Shown here piece after piece: positions 18,615-47,457 of a stretch of DNA of 64,000 bases (position 1 is the stretch's first letter; each line of letters starts with the position of its first letter). The stretch is from Eledone cirrhosa. Taxonomy: Eukaryota. The notes under the pieces were generated by a model. The model made no database searches and was not told the origin of the DNA. It was given only the letters and a program-made list of their open reading frames with translations. The position numbers were made by a program, and so were the translations under genes. Location: the NCBI GenBank assembly GCA_964016885.1, contig OZ024740.1, positions 68,324,001-68,388,000 on the forward strand. The letters run 5' to 3'.

Positions 18615-18629
18615 GTTGGTGGTGAAAAG

Positions 18630-20320: not shown

Positions 20321-20836
20321 TTGATTCCGTGGTATCTTTTGCGGAAGTGAGGAAGGAAGGCTTACATCATTGTGCTGCTACCTTCTCTCTATCACTTTCC
20401 TTGGGGGGGGCGTGGCATGCGTCGTATTAATGGCGGCCATTACGCCTAAACGTCTTTTTATTGACAACTTATAACTATTAAATTTCGCCCCAAATAGGGG
20501 CGAAATTTATTTTTCGTAACGTCTGCAGGCCCAGGCGAGGGGTTAAACACAACAAATAACAAATTACTTAAACAGACCTACCGCTTCTCTTAATAAATTC
20601 AGACAAAACGCAGGAGCGAAACAAAAACATGTCTATCTTCTTCGAGATAGAGGGATAGATAGACAGATAAAGGGAGGGAGAGGGAGAGTCAGACAGACAG
20701 GAGGAACTGAAAATATGATTGGAATTAACCTTTGTTCATCGCACACGAAAGATGTAAATAACAATTTTAGTTGGTCGTAATTAGATTACAGAGTGACGGA
20801 ACGAATAGTGCAAATATATATATATATATATATATA

Positions 20837-21410: not shown

Positions 21411-21606
21411 GCGGCGGATTGGCAGTGTCGGTAGAGAGTCGGACACCATGCTTTGAATCATAGAGTTACATCCTTTTCTGATCTGAGTTCAAATCCCGCC
21501 GAGGTTAACTTTGCCTTTCATCCTTACGGGGTCGATAAAATAAAGTACCAGTAATGCACTGGGTGATTGCTGGCCTTGTGCCTAAAGTAGAAACAATTAT
21601 TATTAC
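21411..21606 (+). mobile_element. SINE family S1 copy ending in a (TTA)n tail
   Basis: A-box-like TGGCAGTGTCGG, B-box GAGTTCAAATCC, conserved core, tail AGAAACAATTATTATTA. Confidence 0.85.
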
Positions 21607-21608
21607 AG

Positions 21609-22511
21609 TTGCATTTATCTTGCTTTATGTTCATACGAGATATCACCAAGTCACAAACAGTGACCTTAAGAGACAACAAGGTCCACCATGTTCAAGAAAG
21701 AACATACATACACACACATGTATCTTTAGGTGTTTAGACTTGTGATGTACTTATATTGACAGATTCTTCCTTAGTATATGGGCAGTTCCAATTAGTACTA
21801 TCTTTTTTTAATTTCTTCTATACGCGGGTTTCTGGGATTTGCGATAAGTAATCATTAGACATCTAGATGGTATTGTTTTAGTTCTCAATTGCCACATTTT
21901 TCCAATTTCTGTCTCCAGGTCCTTATACTTGCTCAATTTTTCAAATGTTTTTATAGATACATTCTTGTCTATTGTAACGGACATATCAATTAGTAGGCAT
22001 ACCCTCTTTTTAAAGGCCTTCAGTATTATATCAGGTCTATTTGCATCTATTTTTCGGTCTGTTTGGATGCTAAAGTTCCACAAGATTGAGATGTGATCTT
22101 TTTCAAGTACGGGAGGTTGTTGATTCTCCCACCAATTCTTTTAATGTGGCAGGTCAAAATGCTTACACATTATCCAATGTATGTATTGTGCAGCTCTGGC
22201 ATGCATGTTTAGGTATTCGGTTGGAGCTATATGACTGCACATTGAAATTATATGATCAATGGTCTCTGCTTGTTTTTTTACATACACGGCATAATGGTTT
22301 GCATCCATTTTTTATTATTTTGGCTTGATCATTTTTTGTTGGCAGACACTGATCATGTGCTGATAAAATCCTTTTGATGCCAACCACTGATGTGTTAAAA
22401 TGTTGTCAACATCAGGATGGTTAGCTCTTTCTGGATTCTCAACATCAGGATTGTTAGCTTTTCTTGCCATTTCTTAGCCAGTTTCTTTAGCAGTTCGTTC
22501 TTTGCATAACA
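21609..22511 (-). mobile_element. R4/Dong-like non-LTR element family D2, 3' fragment with deletions
   Basis: RLE motif WNFSIQTDRKIDANRPDIILK...LIDMSV; 3'UTR nearly identical to 40554-40693. Confidence 0.85.
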
Positions 22512-22526
22512 GTTTTTATTATTATT

Positions 22527-24110
22527 GTTCTCTGAGTCTCAGTCATTGATGTTATTTAACAGGAAAGTTTGCTGAAATGAATATCAAACCGCAACCTGCA
22601 GCCTCAGATATTCAGGACGTATCGGAGGATTCTTTCTGTTCCCAGCAAGCATGTCCTTTGAAGTGTTCCAAAAGGCGGGGCTGGACTAATCATCTTTAAC
22701 CATCCTTGGAAACTCTTTGAGATTGTACCTAGTGTGCTTATGACAATCGGGACGACCTTGATTTCATGGTAGTTACAAATCCTTTTTACATCCCATTTTA
22801 AGTCTTGGTATCGGTTACTTTATCCCACTCCTTTTCTTGCACTCTCGTGTCAAATGGGCAGGCTACATCTACAATCAGGCACGATCGTTTTTTCTTGTCC
22901 AAAACCAACAGGACAGGCCTATTGTGTTCTAATTTCTTGTCCGTCAGTATCCTAAAATCCCACAGCACTTTCACCTAATCGTTTTCTATCACCAGCTCTG
23001 GATTATTCTCGTACCACTTCTCAGAATGTGGTAAATTGCATAGGTTCCAGTGGATCAGCCTGCTCATCACATCATGTCACCAGTCTTTATAGTGAATCTG
23101 GGCTAGGTGCTTACACTCGGATACAACGTGAGCCACAGTCTCCTCCCTCTCTCTCCACAGATCCTACACAGTGCGCTAGCCTCCTCGTTGTAAATATGGT
23201 GTTTCACCCAGTTCGTTCTGAGGGCCTGCTCTTGCGCAGCTATTAGCATTCCTTCTGTAGCCGTTTTAAGGTCTCCTCTTTTTAACCAGTTCCATGTCTG
23301 TGGATCTCTAAATTCAGTTTTCTTAAAGAAGGTACTATGAAGGGATTTCTCATTAAGGTTGCTCTTCCTCCTTGTTGTTATTTCCTCCTTAGACATCCTA
23401 TGGTCTATTGTCTTCTCCTTCAGTACAATTCTGAGCATTGGCTCCCTACTGTCAGTCACGTATTTGTGCAGGTTGTTTTTCGCCATCTCAACACAGTCCT
23501 CTATGCTGATAAGACCTCTTCCACCTTCAGATTTATTTATGTAGACTCTATCGACATCAATTCTCTTGTGGAACATGTTGTAGATAGTCAATAGCTTCCT
23601 AGTCTTCCTATCCATTTCTTTTTGTTCAGCAATATTCCATCTCAGAATTCCCGCACTGTACCAAATAATAGACACAGCTCGGGAATTCACTGCACTTATG
23701 ACATTCCTACTATTTAGATGTGATTTTAATACGCTCCTTACTCTCCTAATGTACTCAGACCTCATCAATTCCTTCATTTTTTTTATCTTAATGTCATCTG
23801 CCTCCAGAACACCTAAATATTGGTATCCTTCTTCAGTGTCAATTTCCTTTAACATCTCACTTGTCGGTACTTGGATTCCGTTGCTTCTGCCCAATTTACC
23901 CCTCTTAATAACTAGGACTCCAGAATTAATACCAAAGTGCATACATATATCATTGCAGAAAATACGGACAGTGTCAACAAGTACATCCAACTCTTTCTCA
24001 CTCTTCCCAAAGAGTTTAAGATCGTCCATGAAGAGGAGGTGGTTGATGGTAAGCTCTCTTTTTCCCAAATTGTATCCTGCTCTCACCTTTCGAAAGATAA
24101 CGGTCAGGGG
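22527..24110 (-). mobile_element. R4/Dong-like element family D1, 5'-truncated, bracketed by (TAA)n
   Basis: INHLLFMDDLKLF, YLGVLE, GGRGL, AAQEQAL, CRICGE and RLE domain; TTA tracts at 22515-22526 and 24111-24135. Confidence 0.9.
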
Positions 24111-24350
24111 TATTATTATTATTATTATTATTATTGAATGCCATGGTTGACGGAGGCTCGGCTCTGTAAGGTATAGTAATTTTTAACCGTTAAAACAATT
24201 GTAAATTGTTTAAAACTTGAACCAAATTGTTAATAAAGACACCCTCCTCCTCGTGAGAGGGGTCTTTCTGTCCGTTATTTGGCCCTTCGGGGTTAAATAA
24301 CCAGTTATTGGGGTTTTGTACCCAAAATTTCATTTTAAACAAAAAACAAC

Positions 24351-26445
24351 ATGGCTACGAAAAAGAAATTTCATACGTCACTCCCACTCATTCCGTCTTC
24401 TTCTTCCTCAATCATCACTACAGCAGAGAGAAGATTGTCTCTCTCCCTCCCTTCTTTAAATGTGTCTCTCTCCCTCCCTTCTCTTTCGCAAGCGACGAAA
24501 GAAAAGAAAAGTCTCGTGCAAAGCGTGCAAGGTTTCTCCACGACGACGACGACAGCGACGAAACAGGTGTGCGGAAATACGAAAACCCAGTTCATTCGTC
24601 TGACGTCAGGAATAATAGCAGTAGCAGCCGTAATAACAACAGCAACAGTGACAATGAAAACAACAGTAGCAGCCGCAACAGCATCACCAGCAGCATAAAC
24701 AACAACAGCATTAGCAGCAGCAACACCAACAACAACCACAGCAACAGCGGCGGAGGCAGTAGTCGTAGTACCTGCAGCAACAACAAAAGTACCAGCAGCT
24801 CTGACGACAACAACAACAGCAGAGAAAAACCAATCTCATTTGCAGGTATTGCGAAAAACTTGGAAACAATCCTCATAACAAATGAGGAATTAGAGGAAGC
24901 GAAGAAGATGGTGACAAAGAACGGACACCGAGCAATCTGCAAGGCAGCGAAAAATTTTTTCGAAACCCAAGAGCACTGTACGGTCACGTACCGTACAGTA
25001 AGTACAAAATCCCGTAGGGTGGAAAGAGCCACAGAGGCCCAAATACAAAAAGCCTTGGGGTCTGTGTGGCAGAGGAAAACGCACATCACCCGAGGCAAAA
25101 AATACGCCACCGTAGACGTACTTTTTGCCACACCCCAGGAGGCAAAGGCCCAATCAGTAGTGACCCTAAGGAGCGAGGAAATGGTGTTGGTGCCCTCCTA
25201 CTGCGGGCAAAAAATTGTGAGGGTCAAACTGACCCACGTCCCCCCCGGAATGACCCCTTCTTGGCTGGCCGCGTCTGTCCTCGTCGGAATCGAGGACAAA
25301 ACAACTGTACTGCAAGTACAGAAAAAAGTAAGAGAAGATTGGGTCGGCTCCTCCATTGAGATGCTAATCCAAACCAACCAGGAGTGCATCGAAGCTATCC
25401 CGGATGTGATAGACTTCGATAACGGCACTCAACTGCCCATAAGTGTTGAGGGCAAACGCCCGAAATGCTTTCGCTGTGGATCGAAGACTCACCTCAGGGC
25501 CTTCTGCAACGAGAAGACCCTGAGAAAGGAGAAAACCCCCCTCCTTCCGAATCCGGCTCCACGGCTACCAGCAACAGGACAAGCGGCAACCAGGAACGAT
25601 AGGTCCGTGGCACCCATACCCACTCCACGGAAATCAAAGACAGCAGCAGCAGTGGAAATATTAACAACAACAACAGCAATACCAAATGCAGCTGCAACAG
25701 AGACTCCAGTGCAAACATCACCAACAACAACAAGTGAAAGAGTGGAGCTGGTACCCCTCCCCGACCTTACAGAATCAGACATAGAGTGTGAGGTGGGAGA
25801 GGGATGGCAAAAGGTCGCAAGAAGGCACAAACGCAGAAGCAGCGCATCGTCGCCTTTGAAAAGGGAGGAAAGAAATGAGAAAAGGGTAAAATCTACTGCA
25901 AAGAGACCACAGCAGCAACACCACCAACACCATCACCACCCACACCAGCACCACCATCACCACCGGCGACAACCCCACCGCCAACAACACCTTCAACACC
26001 ACCACCACAAGCACCAACATCGCAAACACAACAACAAAACACACACACCCAGCAACAACGACAAGAAAATAGCAGAACCACACCCCACCCCCAGAAAAAC
26101 AAATGCACGGCAATAAATACACACAACAAGAAACTAATGACTTACATAATTGAACACACAGACATTTCACAACAGGACTACATAATACCAGCACCAATCA
26201 AAACGCCAACTAACATAAGACTGCTAAAAATAGCACAGAAACAATACACAAACATTAAAACGAAATTCCCCAACGCAGTTGGTGATTTCAGGGACCTAGG
26301 AGGAACCATCCATCGAAGAGTATACTCAGACATTCTCTTAGAAGAGCCGACGACCAGCCGAAGGGACGATTCAACGGTCCCTTCACCAGACGATCAAGTG
26401 AAAAGGGATGTAAAAACCATCCCTCCTCTACCAAAAGTACGGTAA
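24351..26445 (+). CDS. ORF1 gag-like protein (CCHC knuckle), interrupted by single-base frameshifts
   Basis: CFRCGSKTHLRAFC; the -1 frame is open from 25879 to 26445 and carries the conserved YTNIKTKFPNAVGDF block; start position uncertain. Confidence 0.75.
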
Positions 26446-26480
26446 GTGGTCTTTCCCATCTTTTCCACTCTATTTTAAAC

Positions 26481-29400
26481 ATGACCTCACTCAGAATAGG
26501 CAGCATAAATGCGCGTGGCTTGGGGTCGTCATGGAAGCAGGGTCACCTGCTCAACGACCTCAGGTCACTAAACATAGATGTAGTGGCCATCAGCGAGACC
26601 AGAATCTCCGAAGCACGGGCCTTCGCACCGATCTTCGGCGGCTACGATGTGTACGCATCTCCCAGCCGTCCTGGATCGGGTGGAGGAGTTGCTGTGCTTT
26701 TTCGGAGAGGTTTGGATCTCGCCATACGGGCCATCTTCCTGGAACCAGAGGGTAAGCTGGTGGTGCTGGACGTGACCAGCGGAGACGAGCAAGCTTTCAG
26801 GCTAGTGGCCGTCTATGCCCCGACAGGAGCAGGGCGGCCTGATTTCTTCCGGCGTCTGGAGACCTTTCTTGGAACGTCCCGCTCTTTAGTGTTAGTGGGC
26901 GACTGGAACGGGATCTTAGATGCACGCTGGGACTGTGTGGGATTAGCGGATAGGGGTGGAGGGTGCAAGAGCCTCACCAACCTGCTCAGGCGTTTTGAAC
27001 TGTCTGACAGGTACCGATTGGATTTCCCGAATGTGCCAATGTGGACTTGGACAAACCGCATAGGGTCATCCAGATCATATCTAGATAGAGTATTTTGTAG
27101 GGAAATAGATAGGTCTAGCATAGGCTGTCCACAATTCAAGATAGTCAGCTACACGGACCACAAATTCGTGACCTGTGTGCTTGACTTAGATAGGCTTCAT
27201 AGACGAGGACCCGGCTACTGGAAGCTAAACGCGTCCTTACCAGCGCGCAAGGCCTACAGAGACCGGATTAGCGAACTAGTTAAGCGGGCGTTGACGGGGG
27301 CCATCGTCAACAACAAGTGGTGGTTTGCTCTGAAAAGAGCGATTAGAATAGAATCGATTAGGTTTAGTAAGGCTTTAGCAATAGAGAAAAATAGAGCAGA
27401 GGGAGAACTAGTTAGAAAATTAGACGAGGCGCTTAGCAAAGGCATTGCGACCGACGTGCTTGCGGCGAAATTGGCCCTTGACCAATTCTTCAATGCAAAG
27501 CACGAAGGCTGCGTTGTCAGAGCTAGGGTGCGTGCTCTCAGACACGAGGGGACGAAAGCCGTTCAATGGGCCCGAGTGGCGGAGGCGCGTCGTGGCAACA
27601 AAGCCACGATCCGGTCTTTGGTGGACCACGACGGGCGCATGCTACTCGATCCCGGGCAAATGTGTGAAGCTTTTCAGCGACACTTCGCTCAGCTGTTCGG
27701 GGGCAGCGGGGGGCCGGGTAGAGGGATGGACTTTAGTGTCTACCTCGACGGACTGCCGCGGCTCTCGGCCACTGAGGCGAAGTGTTGCGAAAAGTCGATA
27801 ACAGCCGCTGAAGTACGGGAGGCAATGACTGGCTGGACAAGGGGTAAATCGCCTGGTTTGGATGGTCTGCCCTATGAACTTTACGTACAAATGCCAGACT
27901 TGTTCGGAGGCCTCTTGGCGGACGTCTACTGCAACTGGCAACAGAACGGGAGAATTCCCAGTTCTGTGAGCCGAGGAGCGGTGGCACTGCTGAGAAAGGA
28001 TCCGAACAAGGGGGATAACATAGACAATTTCCGGCCCATAACTCTGCTAAACACAGAGTTTAAGATTTTGGCCAAGGTGCTAGCAAAGAGTTGGCGCTTG
28101 TCGTTGGTGGTCTGGTGGGAGAGGCGCAGACATGCGCCATTCCCGACAGATCCATCCACGACAACCTCCACCTCATGCGATACATCGTAGAGAGGGTAGC
28201 TAGGGAACCTGGCACGGGTGGGTCCTTGATCAATTTAGATCAGTCGAAAGCTTTCGATAGGGTCGACCATCGTTACCTAGCGGCAGTCCTGAGGGCGGCT
28301 GGCTTTGGGCCCGTCTTCAGAGGCTGGATCGCTGCCATGCACAGCGACATCTGCTCTGTGGTGAGAGTGAACGGTAACCTGTCGGAACCGTTCAACATCA
28401 TGCGCTCGGTCCGCCAAGGATGTCCCCTCTCGTCCCTCTTGTACGTATTGACTCTCGAGCCATTACTGCACAAACTGGAGACGTTGAGGGGAGTCCCGCG
28501 CGAACTAGGATGCGGAAGATCCGTGTCAGCATATGCGGACGATGTCACCGTAGTGGTGTCGAACGCCAAACACATCGAGGCGATCGGCACTACACTAAGA
28601 GAATACGAAGCGGTGACAGGAGCAATGATCAACCAGGAAAAGTCAGTGGGCCTGCAGCTCGGCACCTGGAGAGGCAGGTCCATGCCGTCCAACAGCGTCG
28701 TCGGGCGCTGGACGGACGGCCCGGTTAAATTGCTAGGGGTCTGGTTCGGTCCGGACCTCCAGACGGACAAAAACTGGGACGAGGTGACGAGCAGGGTGGC
28801 TTCTCTCACCCAGAAATGGGCGGAGAGGAAGCTATCCCTGAAAGGTCGAGCGGAGGTGGCTAACGCGTACATCGCGTCTGTCATCTGCTACCGCCTAACC
28901 GTCGTACCTTGTCCTAAGCCTCGCCTGACTGCGCTGGAGCGTTTGCTCTTTCGCTTTTTGTGGAAGGGACGTGCTCCGATGGTCAGGCGGTCCATCTGTT
29001 GTCAACACCCGCTACGTGGAGGGCTGGGCATGCCGTGGCTGATGATGCGCAGGCACGCGCTCAGGCTACGACATCTCCACCTCTTCCTCGACGGTGATCA
29101 GGTGTGGTCGCCGTTTGCTAGACGCGTTTTTCCCCAGCTCGTTTCCTTGACGGAGCTGCAGTCCTGGGTCAAGCGAAGACCGAGAGTGAGCGCCTGGAGA
29201 CTGGAATGTCTTCAGGCGCTCACAGCCCTCGACCAATCGGGCAATGTGATCGGTGGAAACTCCACCTTGGCGTTCTATAGAGGATTAGTGGAGGGGAAGA
29301 GCGACGACGTACTTGGGGAAACTCTAGGCGTCGACGAAAATCAACTAGCCAATCTCTTCGGAAGAACTTTCGGGCCAGGGCCTATGGACAACTTCCAGAA

Positions 29401-29899
29401 ATCTCTGGCCTGGCAGTGCTACCGAGGAGCCTTGCCAGTTCGGGATAAACTCTACAGGCATGGAGGTGCCGTCAGCCGGGCATGTCCGAGATGCGCGCAG
29501 GGCGACGAAACCGTCCTGCACGCACTCGTCCAGTGTCCGAAAATTGCTGACTTGTGGGTTTATGTCGAACACCTGCTGTCGCGTTTAGGACGGATCCAGC
29601 TATCATCTGAGTCTATCGTGAGGATTGCCCCGCCCTCCTCCTTTAGCCGGGAAGGGCAGGCAGTTTTTATCTGTCTGGTGGCCATGGCGAAAGAGATAGT
29701 ATGGTGGACACGTTTGAAAGGGCTGAAGACGAGCACTTACCTCTTCGGTGATGCTCTGATTGACTTTTTCAAATTTCATTTGAAAAGGAAAATCAGAGTA
29801 GAGAAGGAAGTGCTCTCTTCCCAGCATTTTGTTGAAAGATGGGTGAGAGAAGCAAGAATGGCCCGAGTGAATGGGCCGACTCTGAGTATATATCTGTAA
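26481..29899 (+). CDS. ORF2 APE-RT-CCHC polyprotein, one frameshift at about 28088
   Basis: GSINARGL, SETR, GDWN, SYLDR, TDHK, YWKLN; SPGLDG, KAFDRVDH, RQGCPLS, AYADDV; CPRC...ETVLHALVQC. One G is missing versus copy A2. Confidence 0.95.
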
Positions 29900-30147
29900 A
29901 CTAAATGTGGAAAACTGGGAGAGGGCACTTGCCTTGGTGGTCAAGGTCATTGTGGCTTTTTACTGGGCTTTCTCCACAAATGTCCCTCCGAAGTCTCCCC
30001 CCCTATTGGGGAATTTTTCATTGTTATTTTTGTTACATCCTCTGTTTTTGTTTTTTACACGCAGAAATGCCCATTTGTACCGTCCTGCATTGTCCTGCAC
30101 TGTCCTTAATGTCTACTTTATGTAAACCCTTGTGGTTAATAAAGAAA

Positions 30148-30197
<50 letters not shown>

Positions 30198-30540
30198 GGC
30201 GACCTACGTAGGAAATCGTATTATCGTGAGCTCCGCAAAGGTTTGTTATTTCCGTTTGTTTAAAAATTGCCATTTATGGAAAATTTTATTGTTAACTGTT
30301 TATAAGCACACATACATTGTTTTCCGAAAAGGACACCCAAAAACATTGGGGCCTTGTGCCCAAAATTTTAACTTTTATTATTATCCAAAAATTTCTTTGA
30401 AAAAAAATGGCTAATTCCCCTCTGCACGAAGCAGCTGAAAGCCTTCCTCACAAAATAACACCTCACACCGACACCACCATTGTAAATGTTACTACGTTTG
30501 CCAACACAAAAAAAATATAAGCAGTAGCAATATTTTAAAT

Positions 30541-32399: not shown

Positions 32400-32433
32400 G
32401 TGGTCTTTCCCATCTTTTCCACTCCTTTTCAAC

Positions 32434-35400: not shown

Positions 35401-35854
35401 TAAACTCTACAGGCATGGAGGTGCCGTCAGCCGGGCATGTCCGAGATGCGCGCAGGGCGACGAAACCGTCCTGCACGCACTCGTCCAGTGTCCGAGCATT
35501 GCTGACTTGTGGGTTTATGTCGAACACCTGCTGTCACGTGTAGGACGGATCCAGCTATCAGCTGAGTCCATCGTGAGGATTGCCCCACCCCCTTCCTTTA
35601 GCCTGGAAGGGCAGGCAGTTTTTATCTGTCTGGTGGCCATGGCGAAAGAGATAGTATGGTGGACACGTTTGAAAGGGCTGAAGACGAGCACTTACCTCTT
35701 CGGTGATGCCCTGATTAACTTTTTCAAATTTCATTTGAAAAGGAAAATCAGGGTAGAGAGGGAAGTGCTCTCTTCCCAGCATTTTGTTGAAAGATGGGTG
35801 AGAGAAGCAAGTATGGCCCGAATGAATGGGCCTTCTCTGAGTATGTGTCTGTAA
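32434..35854 (+). CDS. ORF2 APE-RT-CCHC polyprotein, one frameshift in a G-run at about 34442
   Basis: ORFs 32434..34683 and 34478..35854 are nearly identical in translation to A1 ORF2. Confidence 0.95.
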
Positions 35855-36110
35855 ATTAAAGGTGGAAAACTGGGAGAGGGCACTTGCCCTGGAGGTCAGG
35901 GCCACTGTGGTATTTTAATGGGCTTTCTCCACAAATGTCCCTTGGAAGTCTCCCCCCTATTGGGGAATTTTTCTTTGTTATTTTATTTCAACCTCTGTTT
36001 TTTTACACGCAGAAATGCCCATTTGTACCGTCCTGTATTGTCCTGTACTGTCCTTAATGTCTACTTTATGTGAACCCTTGTGGTTAATAAAGAAAACATT
36101 ATTATTATTA

Positions 36111-36153
<43 letters not shown>

Positions 36154-36159
36154 TATTAC

Positions 36160-39100
36160 TCTTTGAGTCTCAGTCATTGATGTTAGTTAACTGGAAAGTT
36201 TGTTGAAATGAATATCAATGAACTACCTGCAGCCTCAGATATTCAGGATGTATCGGAAGGTTCTGGCTGTTCCAAGCAAGCATGCCTTTTGAAGCGTTCC
36301 AAAAAGCGTGAAGGAGCCGATTTTCTTTAACCATCCCTGGAAACTTTTGGAGATAGTCCCCAGTGCGCCTATGACAACCGGGATCACTTTGACTTCATGG
36401 CAGTTCCAAATCCTTTTTACCTCCCAATTTAAATCCTGGTATCGGTTAACTTTCGCCCTCTCCTTCTCTTGCACTCTCGTGTCGAAAGGGCAGGCCACAT
36501 CCACAATCAGGCACGATCTTTTTTCTTTATCCAAAACCACCAAGTCCGGTCTATTGTGTTCCAGTTTCTTGTCCGTCTGTATCGTAAAATCCCACAGCAC
36601 CTTCACCTGATCGTTTTCTATCACCGCCTCTGGCTTATGCTGATAGCACTTCTCAGAATGTGGTAAATTGTTTACTTTGCATAGGTTCCAGTGGATCAGC
36701 CTGCTCATCACATCATGTCACCAGTCTGTATAGTGAGTCTGGGCTAGGTGTTTACACTCGGAAACAATGTGAGCCACAGTCTCCTCTCTCTCTCCACAGA
36801 TCCTGCAGTGGGCTAGCCTCCTCCTTGTAAATGTGGTGTTTCAACCACTTCGTTTTGAGGGCCTGCTCCTGCGCAGCCATTAACATTCCTTCTGTAGCCT
36901 TTTTAAGGTCTCCTCTTTTCAACCAGTTCCATGTCTGTGGATCTCTAAATTCAGTTTTCTCAAAGAAGGTACTATGAAGGGATTTTTCCTGAAGGCTGCT
37001 CTTTCTCCTTGATGTTATTTCCTCCTTGGACATCCCCTGGCCTATTGTCCCATCCTTCTGTATAGTTCTAAGCATTGGCTCCTTACTATCAGTCAAGTAT
37101 TTGTGTAGATTGTTTTTCTCCATCTGAACACAGTCCTCTATGCTGATAAGACCTCTGCCACCTTCAGTTCTCCTTAAGTAGTGTCTATCAACATCACTCC
37201 TCTTGTGGAACATATTGTACATAGTCAATAGCTTTCTCGTCTTCCTATCCATTTCTTTTTGTTCAGCAACATTCCATCTCAGAATTCCCGCACTGTACTT
37301 AATAATAGACACAGCTCTGGAATTTACTTCACTTATGGCATTCCTACTGTTCATATGTGACTTTAATACGCTCCGTAATCTCCGAAGGTATTCAGTTCTT
37401 ATCAATTCCTTCAATTTTTTGTTCTTGATGTCATCAGCCTCCAGAACGCCCAAATACTTGTATCCTTCCTCAGAGTCAATTTCCTTTATCATCTCACCTG
37501 TTGGTATCTGGATTCCGTTACTTCTGCTCAACTTACCCCTCCTCATCACAATGACTCCACACTTACTAATACCAAAGTGCATACATATATCATTGCTGAA
37601 AATACGGACAGTGTCAACAAGCACATCCAACTCCTTCTCAATCTTCCTGAAGAGCTTAAGATCGTCCATGAAGAGGAGGTGATTGATGGTAAGCCCTCCC
37701 TTTCCCAACCTGTATCCTGCTCTCACTTTTCGCAGTACACTGGTCAGGGGCATCAGGGCAAGTACAAACAACAGAGGGGACAGACTATCTCCCTGGAAGA
37801 TACCTCTCTTGATCTTCACGCTTCCCAAGGATTCTCCAGTTGATGTTAACTCTGTTTCCCAGGACTTCATACTTTTGCCCAACAACTGTCTGATGTTATC
37901 TGCCACCTTGAAGATCTCCAGGCTTTTGGTGGTCCAAGATGAGGCACCATCTCAAATGCCTTTTTGTAGTCTATCCATCCCATGGCAAGACAAATGTGTC
38001 TCCTCTTGCAATTCGTCATTACCAACTTATCAATAAGTAACTGGTCCTTTGTACCCGTGACTTCTTTCGGCATACTTTCTGTTCGTCCGGTAATAAGTTG
38101 TTTGTGTGGATGTGATGGCAGATTTCCTCAGATATAATGCTTGTCAACAGTTTCCACATTACGGACAGACATGTGATAGGTCTATAATTGGTAACATCAT
38201 TACCCTTGATTCGGACTTTCATCATAAGAACTGTGGTACCTTTTGTCAACCACTCTGGTACCTCACCTGACATCAAGCAGTCATTGAACATGGTTGTCAG
38301 TTTCGGGTGGAGGGATGTTATGTTTTTAATCCAATACGCCTGCACACCATCTGGGCCAGGTGATTTCCAGTTGGTTAGTTTTTTGGCCTGCCCTTAAGAG
38401 TTTCAACTGTGATACTCAAATCAGTTTGTTGGTGTGCCTGTTCACTGATCTCCTTCTGTACTGTCTCAATCCACACTGCCTGGTCATTATGTTTAACATT
38501 CTGCTCCCATATTCCTCTCCAGAATGTTTTAGTTTGTTCCGCCTCAGGGATCAAGTCGTTGCCTCTTTCTTTCTCTTCAAGCTGTCCAAACAACATCTTC
38601 TGGTTGTTGTCGAACATGCGGTTCTGTCTATACTGGCTGACCCTGTTCTCGTATCGCCTGATTTTTGCATTCTTTGCTACAATGCGTTGCTTCAGTTCCT
38701 CTATGATAATATTAAGCTTTTTCCTCCTAGTTTTGTACTTTATTTCCAGTCTATTTTTAGCGTCTATGTTTTTTAGTGTCCCATTCAGTAGGGACTCAAG
38801 CTTTCCAATGTCATTTCTCATTTCCCTGATTTGACCACCAAGGCTCTGCTCTTTCTTGTCTGTTGTTTCCTCTCGCTTTTATACCAAGTAGTTTCCTCAC
38901 CGTATTTGCTGTTGCTTTGAGGATATTGTTGCACTGGTGAAGGCTCCTCGCCTCAAGGTATGGGATGACTTTGTTTACCTTAGCTTTTGTTTCCTTTAAA
39001 TTTTTCCTGTCTACAAATCTTAGGTTCATAGGTCTCCCACTATCATTGTTCAATTCATCTACCACTAAGTTTAGGATATCAACCAAATCTTGTCCTAGCC

Positions 39101-39761
39101 CGTCAGCATTCATCACCTCAGTCGCCGTATCTCTGTTCCAGGTATTATTTATCTCAGCATTCAGATCATTGTCTACTTCGGGTGGTTCCTCCGTTCTCTC
39201 GACCACTTCACCTTCATTTCCCACTGGCTCGTTTGCCTGGCATACTGCACTCTCCATCTCCAAGCTAATCTCTCTGCTCAGTTCCTCCAGTTCCAGCTCG
39301 CTTATCCACCCATTAGTTCTTATTACCCGAGCCTGCCCGGCCAGTTTTTGTTCATCTAATTTAAATGGACCAATCTCGTTCCAGATGTTATGCATCCTTT
39401 TCCTATAGCCTTTCTCGTTGGGGTTACCTTTCAGGTAACATTGCATAACAGTTCTATTCAATTCTTTCTCCAGTTGGTTATGGTCCCTTTGCTTCTTCTT
39501 CTTCCTCTGACACCAGCAGTATTTGGTTGACAGCCAGGTCCCTGCTGCTGAGCCAGGGAGCACCTGTTGGGTGAGAGTCTGTCACATGACATTCTAGTGT
39601 CCATTTCACAATTATTCGAACCGTTTAGGTTCGACATTTAAACACTCTTATCGTGGATTGGCGAATGTATGGTTACATAACCACCGGTGAATTACTCGTC
39701 TCCGGTGGTTTCGTCACTCCGCGGGACATTTGTGTGGCATTATCACGCTGTAGACGAACCC
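36160..39761 (-). mobile_element. Near full-length decayed R4/Dong-like element (family D1), tail-to-tail with A2 across (TTA)n
   Basis: N-terminal ELN..VMQCY...GYRKRM..IW, WKSPGPDG, NYRPITCL, GIFQGDSLSPLLF, FMDDLKL, RLE NRPDLVV...IVDVACP; several frameshifts; 5' end approximate. Confidence 0.9.
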
Positions 39762-40082
39762 AAATAAACAAACAAACAAACAAGCAGAAAAAAACCCCAA
39801 CATGAATAAGCATAAGTTTCATTGTAATGTAGTGTTTGAATGTCTGACTTGGTTTTTCCCTTCCCTTCTCTGTCCGTCCATTAGTTTTTCTCTTCATTTT
39901 TATTTCCTTTACGTTTTTCGTTGTTGCTGTGCTGCTTTGATTTTTATTTTTGTTTTTTTTTTATTTTGACCGGGTCATCAATTCAGTCTATTTATATAGT
40001 TTGATGCCGTCCTCTTTTAGTTAGAATTCTACAATGTAGCAGGGGCTAGCGGGAGAGAATAGCGGCGGTAGTTATAATGAGC

Positions 40083-40447
40083 CAGTGGTGGTGGTGGTGG
40101 TGACGGTGCTGTGCTAGCAGCAACTAGCAGGAGGTAGTGGGAGAGAATAGCGGCGGTAGCGATAATGAGGAGGTGGTGGTGGTGATGTGGTCGTATTACT
40201 GTAGTGATGGTGTTGAAGACGGCGTAGAAATCTGAGTCGGCTTGACCAGAGTTTTCATCGTGGCAGTGGTGGTGGTGGTGGTGGTGGCGGTGCTGTGCTA
40301 GCAGCAACTAGCAGGAGGTAGTGGGAGAGAATAGCGGCGGTAGCGATAATGAGGCAGTGGTGCTGGTGATGTGGTAGTATTACTGTAGTGATGGTGTTGA
40401 AGTTGGAGTAGAAATTTGAGTCGACTTGACCAGAGTTTTCATCGTGC
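40083..40447. repeat. About 180-bp tandem duplication in (GGT)-rich sequence
   Basis: GGTGCTGTGCTAGCAGCAACTAGCAGG...TTGACCAGAGTTTTCATCGTG occurs twice. Confidence 0.8.
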
Positions 40448-40553
40448 TAGTGGTGGTGGTATTGGTGGTGAAATTATCTTTAGTGAAATTATCATTAGTC
40501 GCGTATATGTGTTGACATATTTTCTTAATATTATTATTATTATTATTATTATT

Positions 40554-41610
40554 TGCATTTATCTTGCTTTATGTTTATACGAGTTATCACCAAGTCACAA
40601 CCAGTGACCTCAAGAGACAACAAGGTCCGCCATGTTCAAGAAAGAACACACATATTCACACATGCATCCTTAGTGTTTAGACTTGTGATGTACTTATATT
40701 GACAGGATCTTCCTTAGTATATGGGCAGTTCCCATTAGTACTATCTTTTGTATTTCTCCTATACGCAGGTTTCCTGGGATTTGCGATAAGTAGTCGTTAG
40801 ACCCCTTAGGTATCATTCCCAGAGCGCCTACAACCACTGGTATTGTTTTAGTTCTCAATTTCCACATTTTTCCAATTTCTATCTCCAGGTCCTTATACTT
40901 GCTCAATTTTTCAAATGTTTTTATAGATACATTCTTGTCTATTGGAACAGACATATCAATTAGCAGGCATACCCTCCTTTGAAAGTCCTTCAATATTATA
41001 TCAGGTCTATTTGCATCTATTTTTCGGTCTGTTTGGATGCTAAAGTTCCACAAGATTGAGATGTGATCTTTTTCAAGTATGGGAGGTGGTTGATGCTCCC
41101 ACCAATTCTTTTGATGGGGCAGGTCAAAATGCTTGCACATTATCCAATGTATGTATTGTGCAGCTCTGTCATGCCTGTTTAGGTATTCGGTTGGAGCTAT
41201 AGGACTGCACATTGAAATTATATGGTCAATGGTCTCTGGTTGTTTTTTGCATACACGGCATAATGGGCTGCACCCATTTTTTATTATGTTGGCTTGGTAA
41301 TTTTTTGTTGGCAGACACTGATCTTGTGCGGATATAATCAGTCCTTCAGTCTCCGATTTCAGTCCAGAGGATGCCAACCACTGATGGGTTAAAGTTTTGT
41401 CAACATCAGGATTGTTAGCTCGCTCTGGGTATTTTCCATACAGAGGCTTTTCTTGCCATTTCTTAGCCAGTTTCTGTAGCAGTTCTTTCTTTGCAGTTAC
41501 TTTTACCTGCTTTGCTTTTTCTGTGTTTTCCATTTCAGCAGTAAATGGGACTTCTGAAATTTGTAGTCCATTACTGTATCTTTGTGCATCTTTTGTAATG
41601 GAATATGATC

Positions 41611-41613
<3 letters not shown>
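40554..41613 (-). mobile_element. R4/Dong-like element family D2, 5'-truncated, bracketed by (TAA)n; remaining ORF open
   Basis: AQDQCL, CRVC...ETIDHIISMC, RHDRAA, NRPDII...LIDMSVP, K..KY.DL, PVVVGALG; TTA tracts on both sides. Confidence 0.9.
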
Positions 41614-41675
<62 letters not shown>

Positions 41676-44600
41676 GGCGACTTACAAGTAAATCGTATCA
41701 TCGTGAGCTCCGCAAAGATTTGTTATTTTCGGTTATTTAAAATTGCCATTTATGGAAAATGGTTATTGTTAACTGTATATAAGCGCACACACATTGATTT
41801 TTGAAAAGGACACTCAAAAAGATTGAGGCCTTGACCCCAAAATTTAAACTTTTTATAATTATCAAACAAAAAAAAAATTCTTTGAAAAATTATGGCCTCA
41901 CAAACTAGCACCCCAAACCGCCACCACCATTGTAAATATTACTACGTTTGCCAACACTAAAAATATAAGCAGTAGCAATATTTTAAATTTGTCTCAGGCA
42001 GACATTCATTTCTCGCCATTACCAATGACCGCAGGTGCTAAAGCCGATCCCCCCCATCCCAACCCCAGCACCACAGCGACAACAGAAACAAAAGAAAAAA
42101 TATATTAACACGTGATATCGAAATGAATTCAACCAAAATGAACTCTTCCACACCGAACACCACTGACGCCACCACCACCACAACTGAAACTAAAATTAAC
42201 AATAACAAAAATAACGATAACAACAACAATGGAATTAAGAAAACTACCCTGTCTTTTGCGAGCGTAGCAAAAACGGGCGAAGCGATCCAGGTAACTCAGG
42301 AGGAATAAGAAGAAGCCAAAAGAATGGCAAAGAATATGGGTACAGGGTCCCCCCCACACACACACCTAATAAAATGGAGCATCATCGCCTGTGCACCGTG
42401 TCTTATCGGACAATTAACATAAAATCGCGCCGAGTGGAACGGGCATCCGAATCCCAAATCCCAAAAGCTTTGGGACTTGTGTGGGCAAAAAAAACCCACA
42501 TCAGACGTGGGAAGAAATATGGAACCGTTCACGTGTTCTTTGAAACACCACAGGAGGCCAGAGAACACTCCATGGCCCCATTAAGAAGTGACGACTTCAC
42601 ATTTGTCCCAAGCTATTGCGGCCAGAGAGTCGTGAAGATCAGGGTGACCCACGTATACGGCCCATCGAAATTCCCTGGCTAATGGCTGCCGTCCTCGCCG
42701 GCATCGAGGCCAACACCAAGATAATCGAAATAGCGAAAGAAAAGCAGGAGAACTGGTCGGGATCTGAGATGGAGCTCCTGATCCAAGCGGACCATAAAAG
42801 CATTGAGGAAATGCCAGAGGCAATAGACCTCACTGGCGGCAGCCACCTCACCGTAATCGTCGAGGGCAGAAGGCCTAGGTGTGTCGTTTGTGGTGAAGGA
42901 ACCCACCTAAGTGATTTCTGCCCTCAGGCTGAAAGGTTGAGGTCACCTATCTTACCCACTCTAGTGACTCAACCATCAACACCACCAGCAGCAGAGATGG
43001 CAGCAACAACTGTAGCAGCAACAGCAGATGCAACTGTAACAGCAACAACCGCAGCAACAGTAGCAAAACAAACAGCACCACCACCCAACGCGCCAGAAGT
43101 AGCACCAGCGCCTACACCATCCACCACGCCACAACCAAAACCAACGCCTGTCGAGGATTTTTCACTCCCCGGCCTATCGCAACTGGAAACAGATTGTGAC
43201 GTCGAGAAGTGGGAAACGGTATCAGGAAAAAAAGAAAAAAAGAAGCCCAAAAAGAAAATATTCTCTTCCTTCCCACTCTAATAACAAAATACAGAGGGAA
43301 ACAAATAAACTATCAAACAAAAAAGTTAGGACAGATATACCACCATCCACACCAGCATCACCAACCCCATCACCACAAACACCAACACCATCACCATCAT
43401 TAACCCCAACACCACCATCACCGACACCACAAAAGTCATCAAAAAGCGAAACAGAAAAATCCCACAACAAACGCAAACAAAACAAAACAACCAAAACGAT
43501 ACACACTACAGAGCATTAAATTTGAACAACAACCAATTATTACACTACATCCAGCACACAGAAAAATACTATACAACAACCCCAAAGTTCACACCACCTC
43601 CACACATACAAATCACTCGCATCACACAGAAAACGTACACGACACTAAAATAAAAATTCCCCAAAGACATCGGAGACTTCCGACAAGCACTCTCCAGGAG
43701 GATTTATAAGGACATCCTTCCGGAGTAGGCCACAAGCAAAGAAAAGGATGGACAAACCATCCTTCCTCTACGAGAAGTAAGGTATGTGGTCTTTCCCATC
43801 TTTTCCACTCCATTTCAACATGACCTCACTCAGAATAGGCAGCATAAATGCGCGTGTCTTGGGGTCGTCATGTAAGCAGGGACACCTACTCAACGACCTC
43901 AGGTTACTAAACATCGCCGAAGCACGGGCCTTCGCACCGATCTTCGGCGGCTACCATGTGTATGCATCTCCCAGCCGTCCTGGATCGGGGGGAGGAGTTG
44001 CTGTGCTTTTTCGGAGAGGTTTGGATCTCGCCATACGGGCCATCTTCCTGGACCCAGAAAGTAAGTTAGTGGTGCTAGACGTGACCAGCGGAGACGGGCA
44101 AGCTTTCAGGCTAGTGGCTGTCTATGCCCCGACAGGAGCAGGGCGGCCTGATTTCTTCCGGCGTCTGGAGACCTTTCTTGGAACGTCCCACTCTTTTATG
44201 TTAGAGGGCGACTGGAACGGGATCTTAGATGCACGCTGGGACTGTTTGGGATTAGCGGACAGGGGAGGAGGGTGCAAGAGCCTCGCCAACCTGCTCAGGC
44301 GTTTTGAACTGTCTGACAGGTACCGATTGGATTTCCCGAATGTGACATTGTGGACTTGGACAAATCGCATAGAGTCATCCAGATCATATCTAGATAGAGT
44401 ATTTTGTAGGGAAATATATAGGTCTAGCATAGGCTGTCCACAATTCAAGATAGTCAGCTACACGGACCACAAATTCGTGATCTGTGTGCTTGACTTAGAT
44501 AGGCTTCATAGACGAGGACCTGTCTACTGGAAGCTAAACGCGTCCTCATCTGCGCGCAAGGTCTACAGAGACCGGATTAGCGAACTAGTTAAGCGGGCGT

Positions 44601-47266
44601 TGACGGGGCCATCGTCAACAACAAGTGGTGGTTTGCTCTGAAAAGAGCAATTAGAATAGAGTCCATTAGGTTTAGTAAGGCTTTAGCAATAGAGAAAAAT
44701 AGAACAGAGGGAGAATTAGTTAGAAACTTAGACGAGGCGCTTAGCAAAGGCATCGTGACCGACGTACTTGCGGCGAAATTGGCCCTTGACCAATTATTCA
44801 ATGCAAAGCACGAAAGCTGCGTTGTCAGAGCTAGGGTGCGTGCTCTCAGACACGAGGAGACGAAAGCCGTTGAATGGGCCCGAGTGGCGGAGGTGCGCCG
44901 TGCCAACAAAGCCACGATCCGCTCTTTGGTGGACCACGACGGGCGCATGTTACTCCATCACGGGCAAATGTGTGAAGCTTTTCAGCGACACTTCGCACAG
45001 CTGTTCGGGGGCAGCGGCGGACCGGATCGAGGGATGGACATTAGTGTCTACTTCGACGGACTGCCGCGGCTCTCAGCCACTGAGGCGGAGTGTTGCGAAA
45101 AGCCGATAACAGCTGCTGAAGTACGGGAGGCAATGACTGACTGCACAATGGGTAAATCGCTTGGTTTGAATGGTCTAAACTATGAACTTTACGTACAGAT
45201 GCCAGACTTGTTCGGAAGCCTCTATGCGGACGTCTACTGCAACTGGCAAGAGAACGGGAGAATTCCCAGCTCTGTGAGCCGAGGAGCTGTGGCGCTGCTG
45301 AGAAAGGATCCGAACAACAAGGAGGATAACAAAGATAATTTTAGGCCCATGACTCTGCTAAACACAGAGTTCAAGATTTTGGCCAAGGTGCTATCAAAAA
45401 GGTTGGCGTTTGTCGTTTGTGGTCTGGTGGGAGAGGCGCAGACATGTGCCATTCCCGACAGATACAACCCCGACAACCTCCACCTCATGCGTACAGCGTG
45501 GATAGGGGAGCTAGTGAACCCGGCATTGGTGGGTCCTTGATTAATTTAGATCAGTCGAAAGCTTTCGATAGGGTCGACCATCGTTACCTAGCGGCAGTCC
45601 TGAGGGCGGCTTGCCTTGGGCCCGTCTTCAGAGGCTGGATCGCTGCCATGCACAGCGACATCTGCTCTGAGGTGAGAATGAACGGTCACCTTTCGGAACC
45701 AACACATCGAGGCGATCGGCACTACACTAAGTGAATACGAAGCGGTGACAGGAGCAATGATCAAACAGGAAAATTAAGTGGGCCTGCAGCTCGGCAGCTG
45801 GAGAGGCACGTCCATGCCGTCCAACAGCTTCGTCGGGCGCTGGACGGACGGACCGGTTAAATTGCTAGGGGTCTGGCTCGGTCCGGATTTCCAGACGGAC
45901 AAAAGTTGGGACGAGGTGACGAGCAGGGTGGCTTCTCTCACCCAGAAATGGGCGGAGAGGAAGCTATCCATGAAAGGTCGAGCGGAGGTGGCTAACGCGT
46001 ATATCGCGTCCGTCAGCTACTACCGCCTGACCGTCGTACCTTGTCCTAAGCCCCGCTTGACTGCGCTGGAGCGTTTGCACTTTAGCTTTTTGTGGAAGGG
46101 ACGCGCTCCGATGGTTAGGCGATACATCTGCTGTCAACACCCGCTACGTGGAGGGCCGGGCGTGCCGTGGCTGATGATGCGCAGACACGCTCTCAGGCTA
46201 CGACATCTCCACCTCTTCCTCGACGGTGATCAGGTGTGGTCGCCGTTTGCTAGACGCGTCTTTCCCCAGCTCGTATCCTTGACAGAGCTGCAGTCCTGGG
46301 TCAAGCGAAGCCTGAGAGGGAGCGCTTGGAGACTGGAATGTATATAGCTGCTCACAGCCCTCGACCAATCGGGCAATGTGATCCACCTTGGCGTTCTATA
46401 GAGGATTAGTGGAAGGGAACAGCGACGACGTACTTGGAGAAACTCTAGGCGTCGACGAAAATCAACTAGCTAACCTCTTCGGAAGGACTTTCTGGCCGGG
46501 GCCTATGGACAACTTGCAGAAATCCCTGGCCTGGCAGTGCTGCCGAGGAGCTTTGCCAGTTCGGGATAAACTCCACAGGCATGGAGGTGCCGTCAGCCAG
46601 GCATGTCCGAGATGCGCGCAGGGTGACGAAACCGTCCTGCACGCACTCGTCCAGTGTCCGAGCATTGCTGACTTGTGGGTTTATGTCGAACACTTGCTGT
46701 CACGTGTAGGACGGATCCAACTATCAGCTGAGTCCATCGTGAGGATTGCCCCGCCCTCTTCTTTTAGCCGGGAAGGGCAGGCAGTCTTTATCTGTCTGGT
46801 GGCCATGGCGAAAGAGATAGTATGGTGGACACGTTTGAAAGGGCTGAAGACGAGCACTTACCTCTTCGGTGATACCTTGATTAACTTTTTCAAATTTCAT
46901 TTGAAAAGGAAAATCAGGGTAGAGAGGTAAGTGCTCTCTACCCAGCATTTTGTTGAAAGATGGGTGAGAAAAGCAAGAATGGCCCGAGTGAATGGGCCTA
47001 CTCTGAGTATGTGTCTTTAAATTAAAGGTGAAAATCTGGGAGAGGGCACTTGTCCTCGTCGTCAGGGTCACTGTGGCCTTTTAATGGGCTTTCTCCACAG
47101 ATGTCCTTCGGAAGTCTCCCCCCTATTGGGGAATTTTTCATTGTTATTTTTCTAACATCCTTTGTTTTTTTACACGAAGAAATTCCCATTTGTACCGTCC
47201 TGTATTGTCTTGTACTGTCCTTAATGTCTACTTCATGTAAACCCTTGTCGTTAATAAAAAAAAAGC
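41676..47266 (+). mobile_element. Full-length but decayed Tx1/L1-clade LINE (copy A3, same 5' module as A2) in (TTA)n
   Basis: 5' end GGCGAC matches A2; many frameshifts and stops; deletion in RT near 45700 removes the YADD region. Confidence 0.93.
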
Positions 47267-47301
47267 GTTATTTATTATTATTATTCAAATTATTATTATT
47301 A

Positions 47302-47457
47302 TGAGTTCAAATCCCGCAGAGGTTAACTTTGCCTTTCATCCTTACGGGGTCGATAAAATAAAGTGCCAGTAATACACTGGTTAATTGGTGGCCTTGTGCC
47401 TAACGTAGAAACAATTAATATTATTATTATTATTATCATTATTATTATTATTATTAT
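47302..47457 (+). mobile_element. 5'-truncated SINE S1 with long (TTA)n tail, sitting in the A3 tail
   Basis: GAGTTCAAATCCCGC...GGGGTCGATAAAATAAAG...GTAGAAACAATTAATATTATTA. Confidence 0.85.

Follow-up and report, generated by a model that had tools for sequence, protein, structure and literature searches.

Positions 21408-47457 of the window, by which we mean the whole 64-kb stretch of DNA that was analyzed, form a 26-kb pile-up in the genome of the cephalopod Eledone cirrhosa that consists of retroelements and the TTA tracts joining them, and of nothing else. Three copies of an L1/Tx1-type LINE lie on the plus strand, four Dong-like copies with a restriction-like endonuclease (RLE) lie on the minus strand, and two SINE-like pieces accompany them. 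This arrangement raises the questions of (i) whether (TTA)n is the insertion target of these elements or only their tail; (ii) why the two classes of LINE face in opposite directions; and (iii) whether the cluster arose by insertion or by duplication. We consider it probable that the cluster reflects independent insertions into one (TTA)n microsatellite by an APE-encoding L1/Tx1-type LINE and two RLE-encoding Dong-like families, the LINE likely being confined to such tracts by a predicted nick at TTAT together with annealing of its tail.

Composition of the cluster

The features of the cluster, and a copy of a sister LINE family that lies upstream of it, are as follows.

15338..20650, minus strand: sister LINE family, with about 70% DNA identity and 54-68% amino-acid identity in ORF2
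21408..21596, plus strand: SINE-like element of ~189 bp, followed by (TTA)3 at 21597-21606; matches copies at 7258-7438 and 8122-8297
21607..22513, minus strand: Ea1, Dong-like family Ea, 5'-truncated, RLE end only; 3' end at a TAA run
22514..22526: short TTA remnant that separates Ea1 from Eb1 (sequence inspection)
22527..24110, minus strand: Eb1, Dong-like family Eb, 5'-truncated (C-terminal part of RT, and RLE); 3' end at a TAA run
24111..24135: (TAT)8 tract lying directly 5' of LINE copy A (TRF and sequence)
24136..30149, plus strand: LINE copy A, L1/Tx1-type, 6014 bp, with ORF1 and ORF2 (APE, RT, zf-RVT; Pfam)
30150..30197: (ATT)16, at once the tail of A and the 5' flank of B (TRF and sequence)
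30198..36097, plus strand: LINE copy B, of a subfamily with a different 5' 2.2 kb, ORF2 frameshifted; about 18 ATT units follow
36098..36150: TTA tract common to LINE B (plus) and Eb2 (minus), which meet tail to tail (TRF and sequence)
36151..40484 (end approximate), minus strand: Eb2, Dong-like family Eb, near full-length (~4.3 kb), reading frames disrupted; 3' end at a TAA run
40525..40553: (TTA)9.7 tract, the tail of Ea2 (TRF and sequence)
40554..41613, minus strand: Ea2, Dong-like family Ea, 5'-truncated; 241 nt are 100% identical to copies elsewhere
41614..41675: (TTA)20.7, which lies 5' of LINE C and, read on the minus strand, also 5' of Ea2 (TRF and sequence)
41676..47264, plus strand: LINE copy C, the oldest, with many indels, a ~180-bp deletion and a decayed tail; 88-92% identical to A and B
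47303..47457, plus strand: 5'-truncated SINE-like piece (47303-47413), then (ATT)14 (sequence comparison)

As an earlier note on this DNA had stated, the three LINE copies, at 24136, 30198 and 41676, each open with a G directly after ...TTATT, and the 3' ends of all four Dong-like copies lie at a TAA run when read on the minus strand. The same note had placed SINEs with TTA tails at both ends of the cluster; pieces with TTA units after them are indeed present at 21408-21596 and 47303-47413, but the supposed tail consists for the most part of duplicated target.

All six TTA-type period-3 arrays detected by TRF in the 64-kb window are within the cluster. The other simple tracts of the window comprise 26 period-2 TA/AT rows and 8 AC/CA/TG/GT rows, and no LINEs of the cluster's families were found at any of these, so that the claim that (TA)n and (CA)n tracts are free of the three families stands for the LINEs. 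For the SINE there is one near-exception, the copy at 7258-7438, the 3' end of which lies against a short AT-rich run.

The element families and their use of the repeat

The ORF2 of the LINE contains the Pfam domains Exo_endo_phos (residues 22-210), RVT_1 (511-754) and zf-RVT (974-1026), and is collinear over residues 5-855 with the human L1 ORF2p of the PDB (E 1.5e-52), the match to R2 being far weaker (1.8e-21). This domain order and collinearity confirm the original description of the element as Tx1-like down to the level of the L1 group, which comprises the L1 and Tx1 clades. Its homologues in octopods, turtles and teleosts are either unnamed or called "reverse transcriptase domain-containing"; protein searches, a cluster look-up and an Atlas search returned no proteins named Tx1, Kibi, Koshi, Dong or R4. 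An intact genomic copy, L097, has upstream of ORF2 a separate ORF1 of 697 aa with a CX2CX4HX4C knuckle, for which no Pfam family exceeded the cut-off. Copy A is 98.9% identical to this copy (L097:730-6741) and is frameshifted in both ORFs relative to it. All 150 RT matches that were scored are 100% identical over 200 aa, most of them in open frames of 1195 or 1204 aa. Intact, near-identical copies are present in large numbers in the genome, and the family is young.

Genome-wide, (TTA)n directly precedes the 5' end in 60 of 60 full-length LINE copies, in the constant phase ...TTATT|G; this sample, 30 per subfamily with the window's own two included, consists of the best-scoring and hence youngest copies. 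Since the queries were internal to the element, the choice of copies was unbiased by flank. A query with the LINE's first 200 bases, for which common words were skipped, gave only 6 candidates and was uninformative. TTA is also found on the 5' side of 6 of 10 5'-truncated copies, a count that leaves aside L085 and L088, which are internally rearranged, and a short second copy in L080; the specificity is not absolute, as the other four have no TTA at the 5' junction. In one truncated copy, L077, the target duplication TTATTATATC runs past the edge of the tract. Several solitary loci with unique flanks on both sides nevertheless carry the 5' TTA. No allele with an empty site was encountered. The proposal that TTA is a target and not a tail alone is upheld by these counts. 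A LINE is regarded as microsatellite-specific when more than 20% of its flanks contain the target (Kojima 2015), and here the same simple repeat occupies both the 5' flank and the tail.

In the sister LINE family, tail and flank are together changed to TATC: its copy in the window ends in (TATC)n/(TC)n at 15214-15337 and has a TATC-like tract past its 5' end, near 20660-20720.

The Dong-like elements have a single ORF of 1140 aa; C-terminal to its RT lie a CCHC motif and a PD-(D/E)xK restriction-like endonuclease. Among proteins of solved structure it is closest to those of R2, with residues 1033-1101 aligned to the RLE motif of R2. In the window, Ea1, the translation of which shows CCHC and RPD..D motifs, is 86% identical to 40554-41495; Eb1 has 86-88% identity to part of Eb2 (36151-37753) and to the complete element of L164; and Eb2, in which Pfam finds RVT_1, is 94% identical to L164:1984-6146 and has a 184-bp duplication in its 5' UTR (40085-40471, TRF). 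The two families are 38% identical over their C-terminal 268 aligned residues. Every copy evaluated has a (TAA)n tail (22 of 22 for Eb, 17 of 17 for Ea, after an end-match filter had removed 8 of 30 and 13 of 30 loci, respectively), and (TAA)n lies at, or no more than 26 nt from, the 5' break of 14 of 15 truncated copies (Eb 8 of 9, Ea 6 of 6). One complete Eb copy lies between (TAA)21 and (TAA)20. That these are Dong-like LINEs, with (TAA)n on both sides in the sense orientation, agrees with the earlier proposal, the assignment being based on motifs and target.

The SINE yielded 2597 first-look candidates in the genome. Target duplications were found in 26 of 30 copies, with a median length of 16.5 bp; 24 of these 26 start with TTAT and all 26 are preceded by A, while none of the 30 copies lies within a long tract. 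The SINE is not microsatellite-bound, but inserts at single ATTAT sites. ARAGORN detected no tRNA genes and Rfam gave no matches for a tRNA-like head. The 3' ends of SINE and LINE match at 15 of 20 nt in a short local alignment; this 20-nt alignment and their shared orientation are what links the two, and should the SINE be mobilized by some other LINE, the TTAT nick motif would not carry over to this one. As a separate observation, intermediate tail variants are visible by eye among the full-length LINE loci.

Origin of the cluster and choice of target

Thirty-nine upstream neighbours could be classified genome-wide: 25 are Tx-type elements or SINEs in the same orientation, 13 are Dong-like elements in the opposite orientation and one is an exception, so that the rule of opposite orientation for APE and RLE elements extends beyond the window to 38 of 39 cases. 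The opposite orientations likely reflect two unrelated nucleases that nick opposite strands of one microsatellite. In their sense strands the LINE reads (TTA)n and the Dong-like families (TAA)n, and we expect priming on the TAA strand for the APE element and on the TTA strand for the RLE elements. As the target duplications of the partner-like SINE begin with TTAT, we infer that the APE of the LINE nicks at TTAT and that the (UUA)n tail of its RNA would anneal to the (TAA)n primer thereby freed; this predicted combination of nick and annealing likely confines the LINE to TTA tracts. Each insertion would add a tail and a duplicated target, and may provide more landing sites for both classes. 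The earlier idea of a self-extending landing pad fits the finding that all 14 (TTA)>=12 tracts sampled, which come from one chromosome end (the initial 2.8 Mb of contig 1), adjoin these families.

A more far-reaching version of this mechanism is possible, although we put it forward only tentatively: the nuclease may need no more than ATTAT and the annealing of the tail may set the specificity, so that a change of tail alone would shift the target, as between (TTA)n and (TATC)n, and this L1/Tx1-type lineage, together with the Dong-like RLE elements on the other strand, would have made most long (TTA)n tracts of the 3-Gb genome. Alternatively, the endonuclease itself might read several TTA repeats, with the strict sequence specificity assumed for the APEs of Kibi and Koshi; tail annealing would then play no part, and the SINE would owe its movement to another, less specific LINE. 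The differing behaviour of the two elements speaks for this alternative, full-length LINEs being in tracts in all 60 cases and the SINE in a long tract in none of 30; but the non-TTA junctions of four of the ten truncated LINE copies, the resemblance between the SINE and LINE 3' ends, and the opening of the SINE target with the same TTAT make it unlikely in our estimation. The joint change of tail and flank to TATC in the sister family is predicted by both models.

The reading in which TTA is a tail alone, with clusters built by tandem or segmental duplication and by unequal crossing-over between tails, applies to part of the genome. An array elsewhere, of at least nine copies, has near-constant spacers (52, 52, 37, 52, 52, 52, 52 and 51 bp), and identical flanks are common to loci L028-L031 and, likewise, to L024/L025; part of the genome-wide clustering is therefore duplication rather than insertion, and the arrays with identical 52-bp spacers reveal that recombination also builds such clusters elsewhere and point to unequal crossing-over. 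The three LINE copies of the window, however, are not duplicates of one another and differ in subfamily and age: A and B have only the 3' 3.8 kb in common (95.8% identity), their ORF1 products are 52% identical over 241 aligned residues, and B and C are 88% identical. At the junction of Eb1, the TTA tract and copy A, the 11 bases to the left of the tract are matched by the window alone among the 40 genome matches scored. Segmental duplication, which the earlier note had named as a possible refutation, accounts for some arrays elsewhere and fails for the window's copies. As 5' TTA also borders unique DNA and, at many positions, the 5' breaks of opposite-strand Dong-like elements, and as it precedes truncated copies and solitary ones with unique flanks, we see very little chance that duplication of tails is the general explanation.

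The constant phase in all 60 full-length copies and the frequency of head-to-tail arrays might instead mean that the 5' (TTA)n is a component of the element itself, or that it arises during insertion, the reverse transcriptase passing from the 5' end of one RNA to the (UUA)n tail of another. Yet the 5' tract varies from 6 to 69 nt among full-length copies, tracts run on into Dong-like elements of the minus strand, for which they are themselves the target, and TTA precedes 5'-truncated copies, which lack the 5' end of the element; such an origin is thus very unlikely. An assembly artefact, with repeats collapsed or chained through TTA tracts, has no direct support. Short-read contigs do break at TTA tracts, so the joins are hard to assemble; the Logan contigs from four runs are interrupted at 24102-24141, with none crossing the junction, an outcome without bearing on assembly or expression. 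Each join in the cluster, however, unites a different family, strand, age and truncation point, and dozens of other loci show joins of the same kinds, so that we find an artefact scarcely credible.

Relation to known retroelements and significance

Independent insertion by nick and tail annealing has a precedent in human L1, which nicks at a short T/A motif and for which the same combination of nick and tail annealing is the model. Human L1 and the LINE described here both have two ORFs and a collinear ORF2, and the target duplications of the SINE are, like those of L1, ~16 bp long, whereas the tail here is (UUA)n rather than poly(A) and integration is almost confined to one microsatellite.

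The closest parallels in target behaviour, as distinct from kinship, are Tx1-clade LINEs. The available passages of two papers describe Kibi and Koshi of teleosts, with (TC)n and (TTC)n as targets (PMC3812793, PMC4494074), and, in the second, crocodilian Tx1 families that target (TTCC)n/(TTTC)n. As far as those passages go, these families and the LINE of E. cirrhosa are alike in encoding an APE, in inserting into microsatellites and hence having the repeat on both sides, and in a repeat unit that varies among related families, as TTA and TATC do here; the unit here is TTA (TATC in the sister family) and the host is a cephalopod. The crocodilian Tx1-Mar and SINEU are likewise a Tx1-type LINE and a SINE with a common target preference, which in the passages available suggests trans-mobilization (PMC4494074); in E. 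cirrhosa, by contrast, the SINE is at single ATTAT sites and the LINE in long tracts. Dong of the R4 clade, including DongBg of Biomphalaria glabrata, is listed as (TAA)n-specific in the part of PMC3812793 available and shares with the families described here an RLE, one ORF only, and (TAA)n both as the tail and in the 5' flank; here two such families coexist, interleaved with an APE LINE on the other strand. For Octopus vulgaris, Table 1 and the supplement of PMC13282606 give "Dong-R4" LINEs as abundant and recently active, and in Table 1 "L1-Tx1" is the sole L1-group label among recently active LINEs; targets are not discussed in the passages of the octopus repeat papers examined. A literature search, with Repbase outside its scope, found no published description of a TAA/TTA-specific APE LINE of the Tx1 or L1 type. 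The LINE belongs to a known kind, the microsatellite-specific LINEs, with a TTA target that the literature searched does not describe.

The choice of microsatellite by APE-type LINEs is called poorly understood in the passages available of PMC3812793, and the present genome provides a natural set on which to test it: a TTA-bound LINE with hundreds of intact and nearly identical copies, a 70%-related sister family with a TATC tail, unrelated RLE elements working on the opposite strand of the TTA repeat, and a SINE whose clean target duplications expose the likely nick motif. Domain and tail swaps on this set could separate nuclease specificity from primer annealing. Our results suggest that the long TTA microsatellites of octopods are largely both products and targets of retroelements, which matters for the annotation of repeats, for the design of markers and for claims of LINE activity in octopus tissues.

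Composition of the TTA-linked cluster

Using self-comparison, junction reading and a small element library, we determined that positions 21408-47457 consist solely of retroelements linked by TTA-type tracts; the coordinates and junctions proposed for this cluster in the earlier note proved correct.

Cluster members in order along the window
21408-21596, +, SINE-like piece, leftmost cluster member
21607-22513, -, Dong-like Ea1
22527-24110, -, Dong-like Eb1
between Eb1 and LINE A, (TAT)8
24136-30149, +, LINE A
between LINE A and LINE B, (ATT)16
30198-36097, +, LINE B
between LINE B and Eb2, about 18 ATT units
36151-~40484, -, Dong-like Eb2
between Eb2 and Ea2, (TTA)9.7
40554-41613, -, Dong-like Ea2
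between Ea2 and LINE C, (TTA)20.7
41676-47264, +, LINE C, then decayed tail
right end at 47457, truncated SINE-like piece and (ATT)14

All six TTA-type arrays detected by TRF in the 64-kb window lie inside the cluster. As had been claimed for the TA and CA tracts, none of the window's dinucleotide rows (26 TA/AT and 8 AC/CA/TG/GT) bears these LINEs in the element library comparison. Just right of the cluster, three old fragments of the same LINE type (67-71% identity) occupy 48377-49609 (+). The GGT-rich 5' UTR of Eb2 contains a 184-bp unit repeated 2.1 times (40085-40471, 92% identity), and an inverted repeat pair of about 760 bp (1304-2053 and 3393-4157, 95% identity) is unrelated to the cluster.

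We assign the plus-strand LINE to the L1 group on the basis of its predicted ORF2, since this is collinear with human L1 ORF2p (residues 5-855, E 1.5e-52), an alignment far above those to R2 proteins. An intact genomic copy (locus L097, 730-6741) encodes an ORF1 of 697 aa with a CCHC knuckle and an ORF2 of 1139 aa with Exo_endo_phos, RVT_1 and zf-RVT domains; relative to it, LINEs A, B and C each have frameshifting indels. Protein searches identified octopod, turtle and teleost homologues, all without family names, including one from Argonauta hians (74% identity in the RT region) and a match within an Octopus bimaculoides protein; by these matches the host is an octopod cephalopod. A 200-aa RT query was 100% identical in all 150 matches scored, most of them within open reading frames 1195 or 1204 aa long, and 5' region queries of the two subfamilies represented by A and B returned 1327 and 1467 first-look candidates (raw counts).

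The two Dong-like families, Ea and Eb, are 38% identical over their C-terminal 268 residues, and in each, RPD...D...K comes after a CCHC motif. A full Eb copy has a single ORF of 1140 aa; R2 proteins are the nearest to its RT, and the R2 restriction-like endonuclease aligns with its residues 1033-1101. Once an end filter had removed 8 Eb and 13 Ea loci, every remaining copy (22/22 Eb, 17/17 Ea) had a (TAA)n 3' end, as expected from the earlier description of the minus-strand elements as Dong-like with 3' ends at TAA. Furthermore, (TAA)n lies no more than 26 nt from the break in eight of nine truncated Eb copies, the remaining one having (GAA)n, and precedes the break in 6/6 truncated Ea copies; one full Eb element lies between (TAA)21 and (TAA)20 in a head-to-tail series. 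This behaviour is that of Dong, snail Dong included, in passages of PMC3812793. Ea is as young as the LINE (100% over 241 nt), while Eb is older (about 95% DNA and 90% protein identity). At L109, L123, L127, L160, L199 and other loci, (TAA)n runs straight into a recurrent sequence with GGGAAGAAGACGCACG as its first bases; this is probably where a full-length Dong-like family, distinct from that of locus L164, has its 5' end. The LINE reported to be active in octopus brain is named RTE in passages of PMC9115989, which give it a zinc finger at the N-terminus, then RT, an endonuclease at the C-terminus and a microsatellite immediately downstream of the ORF; by description, this is the order of the Dong-like elements reported here.

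TTA tracts as insertion targets

LINE queries were placed at least 150 bases inside each subfamily, so that the flank had no influence on ranking, and 5' junctions were then read. All 60 copies (30 per subfamily, the window's own included) have TTA immediately 5', in tracts of 6-69 nt and with constant phase (...TTATT|G in 60/60). Counting the tandem duplicates L028-L031 and L024/L025, whose flanks are identical, once each, 56 of these loci are independent. A 3'-end query yielded 30 loci, 10 with copies truncated within view. Six of these follow TTA (L077, L081, L084, L087, L090, L093), L084 with 22 nt of filler at the junction and L077 at a tract edge with the target duplication TTATTATATC; four lack a 5' TTA (L071, L079, L082, L089). 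TTA is therefore a target of the LINE, strongly but not absolutely preferred. These counts bear out the claim that TTA is more than a tail; a majority of non-TTA 5' flanks, which would speak against it, was not seen in these samples.

For the 60 copies, the 400 nt beyond the 5' tract were classified. Neighbours in the LINE's own orientation comprise 23 LINE 3' ends from the same family, two SINE ends and one Dong-like element; 13 other Dong-like elements point the opposite way, in agreement with the opposite orientations described earlier. The other 21 include, by eye, five related LINE-type tails, four duplicates and one N gap. At the lone exception, L037 (G000:C4:71256440-71259690), an internal position of a same-orientation Eb body abuts the LINE 5' TTA. 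Often (at least 5/22 Eb and at least 4/17 Ea copies, by eye), a Dong-like tail is joined directly to the 3' end of the LINE in reverse complement.

The first 2.8 Mb of contig 1 contain 14 (TTA)≥12 tracts, and all of them adjoin these families; two are assigned via a recurrent sequence presumed to be the 5' terminus of full-length copies of a Dong-like family. The long TTA tracts of this genome therefore look to be largely tails and targets of these elements, as a self-extending landing pad predicts.

Insertion is not the sole source of arrays: unequal crossing-over or block duplication contributes as well. At L099-L103 (G000:C1:441094001-441143999), at least nine LINE copies are separated by near-constant TTA spacers (52, 52, 37, 52, 52, 52, 52 and 51 bp) and fall into two classes, 98.1% and 99.0% identical to copy A. 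As independent insertions would not yield equal tails, this array looks like the product of recombination rather than repeated insertion. By sequence comparison, that explanation is inapplicable to the window cluster, since LINEs A and B have only the 3' 3.8 kb in common (95.8% identity), with ORF1 cores 52% identical, and LINE C, 88-92% identical to both, has its own deletions. These differences in subfamily and divergence argue against a segmental duplication, the alternative named in the earlier note. Between A and B (24136-26400 vs 30198-32350), ORF2 DNA is 96% identical while 5' UTR and ORF1 are unalignable as DNA, which, with the low ORF1 protein identity, suggests module exchange between lineages.

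Proposed priming and the SINE-like element

With (TTA)n on its sense strand, the LINE would nick the TAA strand to begin target-primed reverse transcription; the Dong-like elements, which have (TAA)n there, would use the TTA strand. The SINE-like element (also at 8114-8297, -) may provide a clue to the LINE nick site, because its 3' end matches that of the LINE at 15/20 nt, its orientation is the same, and its target duplications (26/30 genomic copies, L231-L260; median 16.5 bp) start with TTAT in 24/26, with A just before in 26/26. These copies sit at single ATTAT sites, outside long tracts; the SINE head gave no recognised tRNA and no Rfam match. If the LINE moves the SINE, its nuclease would need only a short motif, contained in every TTA repeat, and the long (UUA)n tail of the LINE, by annealing, would confine it to long tracts. 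Alternatively, the nuclease may read several repeats, the SINE being mobilised by another element.

Related and known microsatellite-specific LINEs

A sister LINE (15338-~20650, -; about 70% DNA and 54-68% ORF2 amino-acid identity) ends in (TATC)n/(TC)n and is flanked 5' by a TATC-like tract (whole span 15214-20720); a deletion in its APE region leaves ORF2 residues 135-245 unmatched. Of 30 genomic copies, about 26 have a (TATC)n-type tail and three a (TC)n tail (by eye), and TATC-type tracts precede several truncated copies. Judged by these tails, the lineage includes families on different microsatellites, as do Kibi, Koshi and the crocodilian Tx1 families, for which passages of PMC4494074 give (TTCC)n/(TTTC)n as target.

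Microsatellite-targeting LINEs listed in passages of PMC3812793 are Waldo (ACAY), Mino (AC), Kibi (TC), Koshi (TTC) and Dong (TAA). Octopus genomes are reportedly rich in recently active 'Dong-R4' and 'L1-Tx1' LINEs (PMC13282606, PMC8967140); passages of these papers matched by term searches hold nothing on targets. The literature searched yielded no TTA- or TATC-specific APE LINE, although Repbase or the PMC4494074 supplements may include one.

The earlier observation is thus confirmed and its interpretation supported: the LINE is a microsatellite-specific LINE, a known kind, with a new target unit, which Dong-like elements also use on the other strand. Its value is as natural material to separate nuclease specificity from tail annealing.
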